This document shows, one piece after another, positions 41,193 to 45,318 of a DNA stretch of 64,000 nucleotides; position 1 is the stretch's first letter; each line of letters opens with the position of its first letter. This DNA comes from Deltaproteobacteria bacterium. GTDB lineage: Bacteria; Myxococcota; Kuafuiibacteriia; Kuafuiibacteriales; Kuafuiibacteriaceae. Location of the stretch: the NCBI GenBank assembly GCA_040218735.1, contig JAVJQW010000049.1, positions 209,016 to 273,015 on the forward strand. The letters are read 5' to 3'. The position numbers were made by a program, and so were the translations under genes. The notes under the pieces are model-generated. The model saw only the letters and a program-made list of their open reading frames with translations, searched no databases and had not been told where the DNA came from.

Positions 41193-41196
<4 letters not shown>

Positions 41197-42146
41197 GTTC
41201 GGGTCCTCTTGCGGGTGGCGTAGAGCGTGATCACGTCGAAGTGCGGAGCACGTCTCTCGGTGTGGCTCACCGCGAGGTGCTCGACTTCGAAATCGGCTGC
41301 GGCGAGGAGAGTTTCGAGCGCTTCGGGCTCGAATCCCAGATTTTGGTGATCGTAGGCCGCGACGGCGCTGGTGTGCGCGTGCGCCGCGAGGGTGACGGCG
41401 ACGAGGCGGGCCCCGTCGCGGGCGACGCGCGCGCACTCGGCGAGCACACGCGCGGGTTCGGTGGCGTAGGTGAGCGCGTTGAGCGCGAGGACTTGGTCGA
41501 AGCTCGCGTCTTCGAAGGGGAGGGCGTGCATGTCGCCCTTCACGAAGCGGACGTGGTCGAAGCGCGCGAGGCGCCGCGTGCCGGCCTGGGTGACCTCTTC
41601 GCTCATGTCGAGGCAGGTCAGCGATCGTGCGCGCGGCGCGACGAGCTCGGCGAGGGCGCCGTCGCCCGAGGCGAGATCGAGGACGTCGCCGAGCTGCGCG
41701 AGCCCGATGAACGCCCGCGCGGTCGACTGCCAGGTGCGGCCGGGGGAGTAGTGCCGCTCCATGTGGCCGGCGACGGTGTCCGCCCACGTGCCGCCCCGCT
41801 CGCGCGCCGCGAGGGCCTCCTCGAGGCGCCGCTGGTCGACGGCGAGCAGCGGGTCGTCGAGCCGATCGCGAATCGAGCGCCAGAACTGGCGCGTGTCCTC
41901 GGCCATCCTCTCTTCGCTCGCGGCGTACAGCGTGACCGACTTGCTCTTGCGCGCCTGCACGAGGCCGGCGTCCTTCAGGCGGCCCAGGTGCGTCGAGACC
42001 CGCGACTGCGTGAGCCCCGTGATCCGCACGAGCTCGGCGACGGTCAGCGGCGTGGCCGTCAGCAGGTGCAGCAGCCGCACGCGCGAAGTGTCCGAGAGCG
42101 CGCGGCAGAGCGCGTTGGTGGCTTCGAGCGTGGGCATCGGACGCAT
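41193..42146 (-). CDS. ArsR-HTH/SAM-methyltransferase-domain regulator (SahR/SamR-like)
   Basis: N-terminal ArsR HTH ([15 protein letters not shown]), [25 protein letters not shown]; coupled to metH. Confidence 0.85.
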
Positions 42147-42172
42147 AATCTGCTTATCCGGATAAGCAGATT
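42147..42172. promoter_or_regulatory. Perfect 26-bp palindrome; probable operator of the SahR-like regulator
   Basis: AATCTGCTTATCCGGATAAGCAGATT is its own reverse complement, is AT-rich and abuts the start codon. Confidence 0.75.
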
Positions 42173-42220: not shown

Positions 42221-43953
42221 TCAGCGTTGGAGCGCGCGGCGCACGGCGGCGACGAGGTCGTCCGGCGCGCCGGAGAGGACGGTGGGGCCGTCGCCGTCGC
42301 GGTCGAAGATCCACAGCACGGGGAGCTGCCGCGCGGACGCGAGGTGCTCACGCGCGACGGGGTGGTCGAAGCTCGGGACCTCCACCCGCTTCACGAGCAG
42401 GTCGGCGTTCGAATCCGCGAGGGCTCGCAGCCGTCGGTCGAGGTCGTGGCAGGGCGCGCACCACTCCGCCCAGAAGTCGACGACGGTGACACGCGCGCGG
42501 ACGGCGACGGTCGCGCGGTCGAAGGTGGCGCCGCCGATTGTGAGGTCGCAGACCCCACGGGAGCCGCAGGCCACCGGCCGGGGCTCCCGCCCGGTCCGGG
42601 TCCCGGTTCCGGTCCGGGTCCCGGAACTGGATCTGGGCACGGACTTCGAACCGGACGCGGACGCGGGCCGCGCATCGGGCTCGAGCTCGGCACCGGAACC
42701 GGGCACGGGCTTCGACCCGGACTCGGATGCGGACTCGGCCTCGGATGCGGACTCGGGCGCGGACTCGGCCTCGGATGCGGACTCGGATGCGGCCTCGGAT
42801 GCGGACTCGGCTGCGGACTCGGACGCGGCCGCGGATGCGGACTCGGCCTCGGATGCGGACTCGGCCTCGGACTCGGACTCGGACTCGGATGCGGACCCGG
42901 AGTCGGATGGGGCGCCGCGATGGGGAATCACATCCCCATGCTCATGCGCGTCCCCATGCTCATGCGCGTCCCCATGGTCATGGTCATGCCCGTGCTCGTC
43001 CGCCTCCGCGCCCCCGAAGGCCACCACCACCGCGGCGCCCACCGTGAAGCGCTCCGACACCTGCGGCCCGTTCACGTCGCGCCACATCGGGAGGCGTCCG
43101 TTCACGGCCACGGTCACCCGCTCGTGCACGCGCTGGCTCACGCCGGCGGCGAGCGCCACGATCGTGCCGCCCGAGCGCAGCACCGTGCCGACCTCCAGCT
43201 CCACGGCGCGGCCGCGCGTGGTGCCGTTGATGTCGAGGGACAGCGCCGTGTCGCCGAGGAGCACCAGGCCGCCGGCGCCGTAGCTGAAGCTGCTCGGGAG
43301 CTGCAGCGCGCCCGCCGTCGCGGTCAGCGGCGCGCGCAGGGCGACGTTGCCGCGCAGCGCGAAGCGTTTGTGGACGAACTGCGTCGCGAACAGCCCGGCG
43401 TCCGCCGAGAACGTGCCCGTCCCGACGGAGAGCTGGCTCGGCGCGACGCCGAGGACCCGCAGGGTCTCGGTTCGCCCCGTCGGCAGCCCGACGCCGAGCG
43501 CGAGCGTGACGCTCGGCGTGTACCCGCCGGGCCCCAGCAGCGCCGCGAAGTCGTACCGCCCCGACAGGCGCAGGTCCCCGAAGCCCGTCGAGCGCGCGGC
43601 CGGCGTTCGGTTCGCGCGATAGCGCACCATCCCCGCCGGGAGCTCGGCCTCGACCGACCAGCCCTCGCCGAAGAAGTGCCGCACGCCCAAGACCGCCACC
43701 GAGGACACGACGTTGGCGTTCGCCGGGTCGTCCACGCGAGACGAGCCGTCGAACGAGTCGGGCAGGGTGGAGTAGGCCCACCGCAACCCAACTTGCGTCA
43801 GATCCTCGGGCAGCGCCTTACGCGTGCCGAGCGCGAGATCGAATGCGGACCCCCCGACCGGGAGGTTGGGGTTCGTTCACGACGCTCACTGGCCGAACGC
43901 CACCGTGGACCACACGAGGAACCACGGCAGCGTCAGCCCGAGAAGGAGCCACC

Positions 43954-43957
<4 letters not shown>
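42221..43957 (-). CDS. Predicted UxxU selenoprotein: signal peptide + beta-barrel (transporter-like) + His-rich/low-complexity linker + thioredoxin
   Basis: TTG 43957 gives MRWLLLGLTLPWFLVWSTVAFG-Q-TGA-A-S-TGA-TNPNLP, in frame with ORF 42221-43786; barrel motifs TGFGDL and LGVGLPTG; HGHDHDHGDAHEH; DFWAEWCAPC. Confidence 0.75.
42716..42900. repeat. Intragenic 6/18-bp tandem repeats encoding an Ala/Ser/Glu linker
   Basis: Arrays of GCGGAC/TCGGAT/TCGGCC units; minus strand reads ASESESESEAESASEAES...; boundaries approximate. Confidence 0.8.
43849..43866 (-). promoter_or_regulatory. Putative bacterial SECIS element
   Basis: mRNA ACCUCCC-GGUC-GGGGGGU: 7-bp stem including one G-U pair, GGUC loop; stem begins after a 10-nt spacer 3' of the second UGA. 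Confidence 0.7.

Positions 43958-45314
<1,357 letters not shown>

Positions 45315-45318
<4 letters not shown>

Follow-up and report, generated by a model that had tools for sequence, protein, structure and literature searches.

A candidate family of exported outer-membrane barrel proteins with a selenocysteine pair and a tethered thioredoxin domain

Channels of the COG4313 type are 12-stranded outer-membrane barrels; in their representative Pput2725 the initial ~14 residues enter the lumen from the periplasm and fold there, the relatives TcpY and SphA having N-termini of double that length, and the mechanism of transport by these channels is unsettled (consulted sections of PMC4493636). Bacterial outer-membrane selenoproteins are rare, as just two barrel families are found among the 119 families tabulated in PMC13188914, and proteins with two selenocysteine (Sec, U) residues form a small subset there; the UxxU families listed are a Prx-like thiol:disulfide oxidoreductase, the HMA-type metal-binding protein NF041115, and an FmdB-family protein. 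For comparison with known selenoprotein families we used parts of PMC13188914 and PMC9312934. Here we describe a gene located in a 64,000-nt stretch of DNA (the window; positions 209,016 to 273,015 of contig JAVJQW010000049.1, assembly GCA_040218735.1) from a Deltaproteobacteria bacterium assigned to Myxococcota. Judging from sequence comparison, two in-frame TGA codons of this gene almost certainly encode Sec in an exported outer-membrane barrel protein with its own thioredoxin domain. The prediction taken as a whole, that is, an exported COG4313-type barrel with two Sec residues, a tethered WCAPC thioredoxin, and one hairpin recoding both UGA codons, is considered highly probable.

The called open reading frame (ORF; translation table 11) occupies 42221..43786 on the minus strand, starts with TTG, and yields a 521-aa product that lacks a signal peptide. 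Read in this frame from TTG 43957–43955, the minus strand gives MRWLLLGLTLPWFLVWSTVAFG-Q-U-A-S-U-TNPNLPVGGS, and the translation then runs on into the called ORF, with a read-through product of 578 aa and a predicted mature N-terminal peptide Q-U-A-S-U-TNPNLPVGGSAFDLALGTR. An earlier note, made from the sequence alone, had pointed to the ORF lacking a signal peptide, the two in-frame TGAs, the signal peptide upstream of them and the 578-aa read-through product, and all of these are found exactly as it described. The gene spans 42224–43957 of the minus strand, followed by the stop TGA at 42221–42223; the two internal UGAs are 9 nt apart, and the start TTG 43957 overlaps the stop TGA (43956–43954) of the upstream cystathionine beta-synthase (CBS) gene as TTGA. 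As TGA ends both the upstream CBS gene and the barrel gene itself, no general change of the genetic code is involved, and TGA is an ordinary stop in the window, as had been noted. The features at the start of the gene are the following.

43892–43957, minus strand: signal peptide of 22 codons, probable cleavage between AFG and Q (translation; strain differences at codons 8 and 19 are synonymous)
43886–43888, minus strand: UGA-1, codon 24, first position of U-x-x-U (aligns with TGA or Cys in relatives; same in contigs of four studies)
43877–43879, minus strand: UGA-2, codon 27, second and more conserved position (Cys in 20/20 Cys-form proteins, C28 of the alignment; same in four studies)

The main support for Sec comes from relatives. 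When 41 related genomes were searched in six frames with the first 320 aa of the read-through protein, full-length relatives emerged at 42–43% identity, each with two TGAs, along with one relative at 25% identity with no TGA. The codons in relatives read GQ-TGA-AT-TGA-ANPNLPVGGS, GQ-TGA-FT-TGA-VNPNLPVGGS, A-TGA-TGA-VVGVNSNSPVGGS, and AQ-TGT-AT-TGT-GNPALTAGAS. A profile search of 401 same-phylum genomes gave some match at E ≤ 1e-5 in 90 of them, these matches being mostly partial and representing generic barrel relatives. N-termini were read at 28 full-length loci (orthologous or paralogous) of other genomes, and at 27 of these an in-frame signal peptide is immediately followed by a Sec/Cys pair and then by xNPxLP; the sole exception, L043, has no pair at the expected place. 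The pairs are distributed as follows.

UxxU: 5 loci
UU (adjacent): 1 locus
CxxU: 11 loci
CxxC: 10 loci

Since the same two positions are occupied by TGA or Cys codons in 27 of the 28 loci, the TGA pair is far beyond chance, and the pattern at both positions has every appearance of the classical Sec/Cys signature, as the earlier note had anticipated for relatives. In the Cys-form proteins the second Cys is present in 20 of 20, and the first, in 18 of 20; of the variants, P0130 has adjacent CC and P0143 retains the second Cys only. The CxxU form is present in many genomes of one family, f9. By this comparison the second position of the pair appears to be the essential one.

Several relatives deserve separate mention. 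The locus with adjacent TGA-TGA (L023:1501-2994(+), genome G009) belongs to a selA-bearing genome and possibly represents tandem Sec-Sec with unusually long spacing between UGA and the hairpin loop. Moreover, there is a barrel-only subfamily with no thioredoxin domain (L156 in G366, L157 in G254, L155 in G327, and L042 in G073), which keeps the N-terminal pair as A-C-AG-U-SNPNLPVGG, but as CxxC in G327; a second conserved motif, CPDIGPIC...EPPQLHDQ, is observed in barrel-only L155–L157. In each of two genomes, G222 and G345, the CxxU copy is accompanied by a CxxC paralogue (AQA-C-AS-C-TPLALP, with WCEAC as its thioredoxin site; G222:C245:6971-7906, L153, and G345:C108:8809-9744, L154, respectively), and hence Sec and Cys versions coexist within one genome.

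Independent DNA agrees with the sequence of the window. Contigs were obtained from four runs of four studies, three of them spanning all of 43600–44200, two at depths 15 and 29; they have 1–7 differences and no indel, and both codons are TGA, not TGC or TGG. Six in-gene strain differences are all synonymous third-position changes in the proposed frame, with codons 8 and 19 belonging to the signal peptide, codons 30 and 39 lying between UGA-2 and the called start, and the remaining two being codons 73 and 87. Six is a small number, but this is the pattern that purifying selection on a continuous frame would be expected to produce.

The genome containing the window (11.6 Mb in 70 contigs, 96% complete, 69% G+C) encodes the Sec machinery that the earlier note expected to find in it: selA (493 bits), selB (341 bits), and selD (326 bits) all exceed the curated cut-offs, and a tRNA-Sec with anticodon tca is located at C39:357204-357300. 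Besides, selD itself has an in-frame TGA (SGG-U-AAKLGPG) with a hairpin GGUC-CGGGU-GACC after the UGA (G000:C18:152317-153240(-), L010), and a formate-dehydrogenase-like gene contains one in-frame TGA (G000:C55:398376-399125(-), L145), so that at least three selenoprotein genes are predicted in this genome. Of the 16 other Sec-form genomes, 15 yielded selA, and the sixteenth, G342, is 89% complete; none of the 6 genomes in the CxxC-only clade yielded it. G309, with the CxxC form, carries selA as well. In the UxxU-bearing genome G003 selA is split into several pieces in different frames (C16:99439-100205 and C22:13-564, the latter piece at a contig end), which may reflect frameshifts or an assembly break and, if real, would question Sec decoding in G003.

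Downstream of UGA-2, the gene contains a candidate selenocysteine insertion sequence (SECIS).

43840–43875, minus strand: SECIS-like element (RNA folds; lower stem CGAA/UUCG, internal loop, apical stem ACCUCCC/GGGGGGU at 43849–43866, loop GGUC)

The element begins 4 nt after UGA-2, and the G-U of its loop is 22–23 nt after the U of UGA-2 and 31–32 nt after the U of UGA-1; thus placed, one hairpin would recode both UGAs. The GGUC loop is presumably similar to that of Escherichia coli fdhF. For 14 of the 15 Sec-form sequences folded, nt 10–36 after the second-position codon have as their minimum-energy structure a 6–7 bp hairpin in one register, with a shifted alternative in L039, and the same hairpin, CCUCCC-GGUC-GGGGGG, was identified by eye in L156 and L157. 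Taken together, the 17 Sec forms all have a hairpin at a constant distance from the second-position codon, GGUC being the prevailing loop. Loops of the Sec-form hairpins are GGUC, AGUU, GGC, GUC, or GGU, and stems differ yet pair, e.g., AUCUCCC/GGGGGAU in L025 and UCUUCC/GGAAGA in L042, where the loop is still GGUC. The stem of the CxxU clade, GCUCCC/GGGAGC with a 3-nt loop, has its 3' arm shifted by one base relative to the reading frame, and hence conservation of the protein sequence does not account for the hairpin. In nine sequences, 87% of cells are paired, compared to 75.6% in shuffles (0 of 500 shuffles reach 87%), the counted structure having been derived from the same sequences; both sides are altered in 6 of 12 pairs, that is, compensatory change is observed, and slid controls give at most 54.6%. 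In L023 with its UGA-UGA, the hairpin is CUCCCC-AGUU-GGGGGG and both codons are 31–35 nt upstream of the loop, which suggests that the ~31-nt spacing of UGA-1 is tolerated in these organisms. A search of Rfam with 43760–43960 at E ≤ 10 gave no relevant model and a single chance match at E 7.8.

The architecture of the protein, as predicted by AlphaFold2 (AF2) and compared with known families and structures, comprises the following parts.

43802–43891, minus strand: mature N-terminal arm, residues 23–52, Q-U-A-S-U-TNPNLPVGGS and then a short helix, before the first strand (AF2)
43010–43801, minus strand: 12-stranded outer-membrane beta-barrel of the COG4313 / PF13557 type, residues 53–316 (AF2, structure matches)
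42932–43000, minus strand: His/Asp-rich tract DEHGHDHDHGDAHEHGDAHEHGD, residues 320–342, opening the linker (translation)
42713–42907, minus strand: Ser/Glu/Ala low-complexity insert of 65 residues in the linker, SESESESEAESASEAES... (absent from all aligned relatives)
42566–43009, minus strand: disordered linker, residues 317–464 (local confidence, pLDDT, below 50)
42224–42565, minus strand: C-terminal thioredoxin domain, residues 465–578, with WCAPC at 42449–42463, residues 499–503 (PF00085; pLDDT above 90)

In the AF2 model built from a 25-sequence alignment, barrel residues 50–316 and thioredoxin residues 465–578 have pLDDT above 90, and residues 14–39 and 338–460, below 50. The mature barrel modelled alone (55 sequences) has a predicted TM-score of 0.85, the first 14 residues (QUASUTNPNLPVGG) being below 50 and the next 16 at 54–79. 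Structure comparison places this barrel closest to chain C of 4rl8 (Z 27.8, root-mean-square deviation 2.1 Å, 256 of 268 residues aligned, 15% identity; model residue 8 corresponds to chain residue 1), followed by FapF (Z 24.5) and autotransporter barrels (Z about 21), with Foldseek E-values of 1e-13 to 1e-14, and thus the exported beta-barrel proposed in the earlier note is recovered as a COG4313-type barrel. The diselenide or metal-binding plug suggested in the same note has a structural precedent in the lumenal N-terminus of COG4313 channels (PMC4493636, sections consulted), and is a hypothesis for the window's protein, whose Sec-bearing residues have pLDDT below 50. By sequence profile, no solved structure other than FapF (E 0.003) is detected; PF13557 is found in the nearest Atlas clusters, and the homologue P0004 has a precomputed PF13557 match. 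As no Pfam family matched the window's barrel at E ≤ 1, we consider it a distant relative by fold rather than a member of the curated-model family PF13557.

Searches of Pfam and NCBIfam with the window's protein and with CxxU and CxxC relatives recognised the thioredoxin domain alone (PF00085 in the window's protein: residues 478–564, E 3.9e-7, 30.5 bits at a cut-off of 23.5); since it is below every NCBIfam equivalog cut-off, this domain is of the thioredoxin fold but is not TrxA, TrxC, or TlpA. The Ser/Glu/Ala insert gave spurious NCBIfam matches to Sdr/Clf adhesins. Tracts rich in His/Asp are also observed in the UxxU-clade relatives L024, L025, L030, L031, P0003, and P0005, and are absent in the CxxU and CxxC clades. 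The alignment of Cys forms has no conserved Cys column besides the N-terminal pair and WCxxC. Both ends of a 12-stranded barrel being periplasmic, the arm and the tethered thioredoxin lie on one side of the membrane, the 30-residue arm being of the longer, TcpY/SphA-like kind with the Sec pair at its tip. Prediction of a complex between the arm plus barrel of the Cys form L026 and its own thioredoxin domain gave a score of 0.00 without controls, which counts neither for nor against.

The family extends far beyond the sampled genomes. Searching 1.84 billion cluster representatives with a profile yielded 193 proteins at E ≤ 1e-30, of which the best 150 were examined. WCxxC occurs after residue 200 in 115 of these best 150. 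As called, 19 of the 150 carry both a signal peptide and CxxC, another 15 begin immediately behind the motif (MNPNLPVGGS...), and of the other 116 most begin inside the mature domain with no signal peptide. The three closest database proteins are all called truncated, and most of the truncated entries are likely Sec forms. As the signal peptide is called in only 19 of the best 150 representatives, the exported, redox-active nature of these proteins is invisible in databases.

The following mechanism can be proposed. The Sec-type (secretory) signal peptide would export the protein, and the COG4313-type barrel would insert into the outer membrane, with the flexible arm Q-U-A-S-U and, on its long His/Asp-rich tether, the C-terminal WCAPC thioredoxin both facing the periplasm. 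At the periplasmic mouth or in the lumen of the channel, the selenol pair would react with or bind a soft electrophile, which might be a soft metal ion, an oxidant, or a species of the disulfide or chalcogen kind. A diselenide or an adduct would result, from which the thioredoxin domain would regenerate the reduced pair. That the selenol pair is the working site, recycled in cis by the tethered thioredoxin, has in our estimate about an even chance. We prefer this relay because the fusion is seen in 115 of the best 150 representatives and both parts share a compartment, and also because the pair's second position shows the behaviour expected of an essential nucleophile and the CxxU clade adds a thiol/selenol oxidoreductase.

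Several observations weigh against this reading or limit it. All support for Sec is comparative, incorporation and expression both being predicted. The hairpin shows no excess of stability over shuffled sequence at 69% G+C (z –0.81), and three of seven Cys-form genes form GC-rich hairpins close by that are similar in energy but differ in loop and register, and hence hairpin stability alone does not discriminate; the pair counts, in turn, use a structure taken from the very sequences counted. In E. coli the spacing between UGA and the hairpin is considered strict, so that efficient decoding of UGA-1 at ~31 nt is less certain. The Sec-bearing residues, being modelled with pLDDT below 50, are not placed by AF2 in the lumen or in the periplasm. 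A diselenide is harder to reduce than a disulfide, having a low redox potential, and this argues against simple recycling of U-U by thioredoxin; no electron source for the thioredoxin domain was identified. The relay cannot be universal, as L042 and L155–L157 have no thioredoxin domain. Finally, a tblastn search with the nine neighbour proteins of the window against 14 orthologous loci showed that none of them, CBS included, recurs, and the neighbourhood provides no functional clue.

Four other explanations have been weighed, two of which deny Sec altogether. If the TGAs were true stops, the locus would be a pseudogene, an assembly error, or a gene starting at TTG 43786 with an accidental signal peptide upstream. 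Standard gene calling indeed gives the 521-aa ORF from 43786, but a barrel protein with no signal peptide could not reach the outer membrane, and TGA or Cys codons recur at the same two positions in 27 of 28 loci from many genera, each behind an in-frame signal peptide. Both TGAs are kept with no indel in the contigs of four independent studies, the strain differences before UGA-1 and from UGA-2 to 43786 are all synonymous, and the conserved NPNLPVGGS lies upstream of 43786, which leaves this explanation barely credible. Read-through of UGA by other means, that is, by near-cognate Trp, Cys, or Arg or through a recoding signal unrelated to SelB, is very improbable as well, if slightly less so: a hairpin could in principle stimulate generic read-through, but the aligned residue in non-TGA forms is always Cys, the TGA forms reside in genomes with selA (15/16) and the selA-less clade (0/6) has Cys at both positions, and the position of the hairpin and its G-containing loop are as expected of a bacterial SECIS.

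The other two explanations accept Sec and differ in the role of the pair. It may be mainly a ligand of soft metals (Cu(I), Hg(II), Zn, Cd, Ni), with the His/Asp linker collecting the metal, the barrel passing or sequestering it, and the thioredoxin keeping the pair reduced. Such a role would account for the His/Asp tract after the barrel in the window's protein and six UxxU-clade relatives and for the N-terminal arm being modelled as unstructured; UU in L023, CC in P0130, and the single Cys in P0143 fit ligands better than a CxxC redox helix, and among UxxU/UxxC/UxC selenoproteins the consulted part of PMC13188914 lists a UxxU HMA-type protein, a MerT-like protein, a P-type ATPase, and the SO_0444 Cu/Zn efflux transporter. 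On the other side, the His-rich tract is absent in both the CxxU and the CxxC clade, no gene for metal resistance or transport is a recurrent neighbour, neither Pfam nor NCBIfam gives an HMA-type or other metal-binding family match, and COG4313 channels have been tied to hydrophobic or amphipathic substrates, not ions (PMC4493636, sections consulted), so that we regard a primarily metal-binding role, the main alternative to the relay, as unlikely, although with a real share of the probability. Less likely still, and in our view doubtful, is a redox latch, in which a diselenide or selenenylsulfide would lock and release an N-terminal plug and the thioredoxin would open it, giving a redox-gated channel. 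The fold is of the COG4313/FapF type, whose N-terminal segment occludes the lumen (same source), and the Sec pair is at the extreme N-terminus of that segment (model residue 8 matching chain residue 1); a latch, however, would require either a fixed conformation or a barrel Cys to pair with, and there is no other conserved Cys, the arm is modelled as disordered, and barrel-only members have no thioredoxin at all. The preferred cis relay and the metal-ligand role are not exclusive, as a site for soft metals would have to rely on a reductase under the oxidising conditions of the periplasm.

The gene order in the window, on the minus strand, is XdhC-like, unknown, Fe-ADH, CBS, the barrel-thioredoxin gene, a gene for an ArsR-type HTH fused to a SAM methyltransferase, and MetH.

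43954–45318, minus strand (ATG at 45318): cystathionine beta-synthase, upstream (PALP 1.8e-72 and two CBS domains)

All-against-all clustering shows no conserved neighbour in the UxxU clade, and Pfam analysis of ten neighbours of UxxU-clade orthologues (G003, G127, G010) yields unrelated functions. As the neighbours do not recur beside orthologues, the sulfur-amino-acid context is lineage-specific and was not used for the functional assignment. The similarity of gene junctions proposed in the earlier note applies to a part of this locus: the overlap is seen at the CBS/barrel gene junction (TTGA) and at the ArsR-methyltransferase/MetH junction (GTGA), but the ArsR-methyltransferase gene has its own ATG at 42146, and the gap between Fe-ADH and CBS is ~430 nt. 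The ArsR-methyltransferase gene (41193–42146, minus strand) overlaps by its stop the GTG start of MetH, at about 41193. A perfect 26-nt palindrome, AATCTGCTTATCC directly followed by GGATAAGCAGATT, occupies 42147–42172 and ends one base before ATG 42146; it looks like the operator of the ArsR-methyltransferase regulator itself.

Neighbours in the CxxU and CxxC clades show regularities of their own. In the CxxU clade, the next gene downstream encodes a lipoprotein split by an in-frame TGA, LVVVLLEGF-TGA-TVCRSQAG.

L056:8731-9396, minus strand: TGA-split lipoprotein gene
L057:8607-9293, minus strand: TGA-split lipoprotein gene
L058:8037-8777, minus strand: TGA-split lipoprotein gene
L062:9387-10049, plus strand: TGA-split lipoprotein gene
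L064:4662-5336, plus strand: Cys form of this lipoprotein gene

The lipoprotein of G309 reads EGFCTFCRS, with a match to Redoxin PF08534 at E 3e-5, below the cut-off. The CxxU-clade lipoprotein appears to be another selenoprotein, of the UxxC kind, that makes up a two-gene unit together with the channel; a tblastn search for the redoxin-like lipoprotein in the window's own genome at E ≤ 0.01 gave no homologue. In the CxxC clade, lacking selA, a small Cys-rich lipoprotein (~110 aa mature, 8–10 Cys, no Pfam family) is encoded directly upstream on the same strand.

L054:9123-9548, plus strand: Cys-rich lipoprotein gene
L055:8965-9507, plus strand: Cys-rich lipoprotein gene
L059:5547-5978, plus strand: Cys-rich lipoprotein gene
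L060:9270-9677, plus strand: Cys-rich lipoprotein gene

As far as checked, the family has not been described, in line with the earlier note. None of the 119 prokaryotic selenoprotein families in Table 1 of the 2026 review PMC13188914 combines a Sec pair, a barrel, and a thioredoxin, and no Pfam or NCBIfam model covers the barrel, so that the protein falls in no curated family. Its probable mode of action would be that of a thioredoxin-coupled CxxC, CxxU, or UxxU site for redox chemistry or metal, here placed on a COG4313 barrel. A search of the literature on Myxococcota/Myxococcus selenocysteine and on outer-membrane, beta-barrel, or thioredoxin selenoproteins did not find the family, although supplements of surveys might list it under another name. 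Replacement of Cys by Sec in a CxxC-type pair is already known; the proposed novelty of this selenoprotein family is in its two Sec residues and the unusual architecture, which adds the combination of a Sec pair, a COG4313 barrel, and a tethered thioredoxin to the known ones. We tentatively suggest, at somewhat below an even chance, that the window's protein is the founding example of an unrecognised and fairly widespread family of channels with a complete redox module, the selenol arm plus its own thioredoxin.

If this suggestion holds, no COG4313-type channel known earlier would have chalcogen chemistry of its own, and the pore might be gated by redox state or might transform its substrate; the database entries of the family would for the most part be truncated, signal-less mis-calls. 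With the transport mechanism of COG4313 channels being unsettled, a reactive group on the N-terminus would provide a handle on that very segment (cf. PMC4493636, sections consulted). The family also poses a question of recoding, namely, how one hairpin serves two UGAs and how tandem UGA-UGA is read, and would thus be a natural test bed for the stretch of the SelB/SECIS spacing.

Among the known systems, the FapF amyloid secretion channel, which has an N-terminal plug, is a 12-stranded barrel too, but it has no redox motif, thioredoxin domain, or Sec, and is encoded in the fap operon, no such genes being present at the window's locus. Its structures (PDB 5o65, 5o67) are the best Foldseek match of the window's barrel (E 1.7e-14). 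Pput2725 of Pseudomonas putida F1 (PDB 4rl8), of COG4313 / PF13557 (Phenol_MetA_deg), has the same 12-stranded barrel and a segment before strand 1; Pput2725, TcpY, and SphA are described in the consulted sections of PMC4493636 with no N-terminal Cys/Sec pair, thioredoxin domain, or selenocysteine. The two outer-membrane barrel selenoproteins in the table of PMC13188914, the TonB-dependent receptor of the FCYXU type (NF049945, CxxU) and the GSU2204-family MtrB/PioB protein (NF041027), belong to other barrel families (22-stranded in the case of the TonB receptor), with a single Sec each and no thioredoxin fusion according to that source. Neither NF049945 nor NF041027 matches the window's protein at E ≤ 0.1.

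With the known UxxU families the window's protein shares two Sec residues spaced as in CxxC, the folds and the positions of the motif being different; NF041115 is not among the NCBIfam matches at E ≤ 0.1. The eukaryotic/marine protein SelL is likewise a UxxU selenoprotein. In SelL and the Prx-like family, UxxU is the active site in a thioredoxin fold, whereas UxxU of the window's protein (residues 24–27) is outside any fold, ~440 residues away from the CxxC thioredoxin. The C-terminal domain, having a WCxPC-type site, shows weak NCBIfam similarity to TlpA, DsbE, ResA, and StoA, far below the cut-offs. TlpA reduces the copper chaperone ScoI, and the logic of keeping an envelope Cys pair reduced would be shared with the TlpA/ResA/CcmG/DsbD-type reductases; in contrast to these, the window's protein joins the reductase in one chain with both the presumed target and an outer-membrane barrel, and the pair to be reduced is predicted to be Sec.

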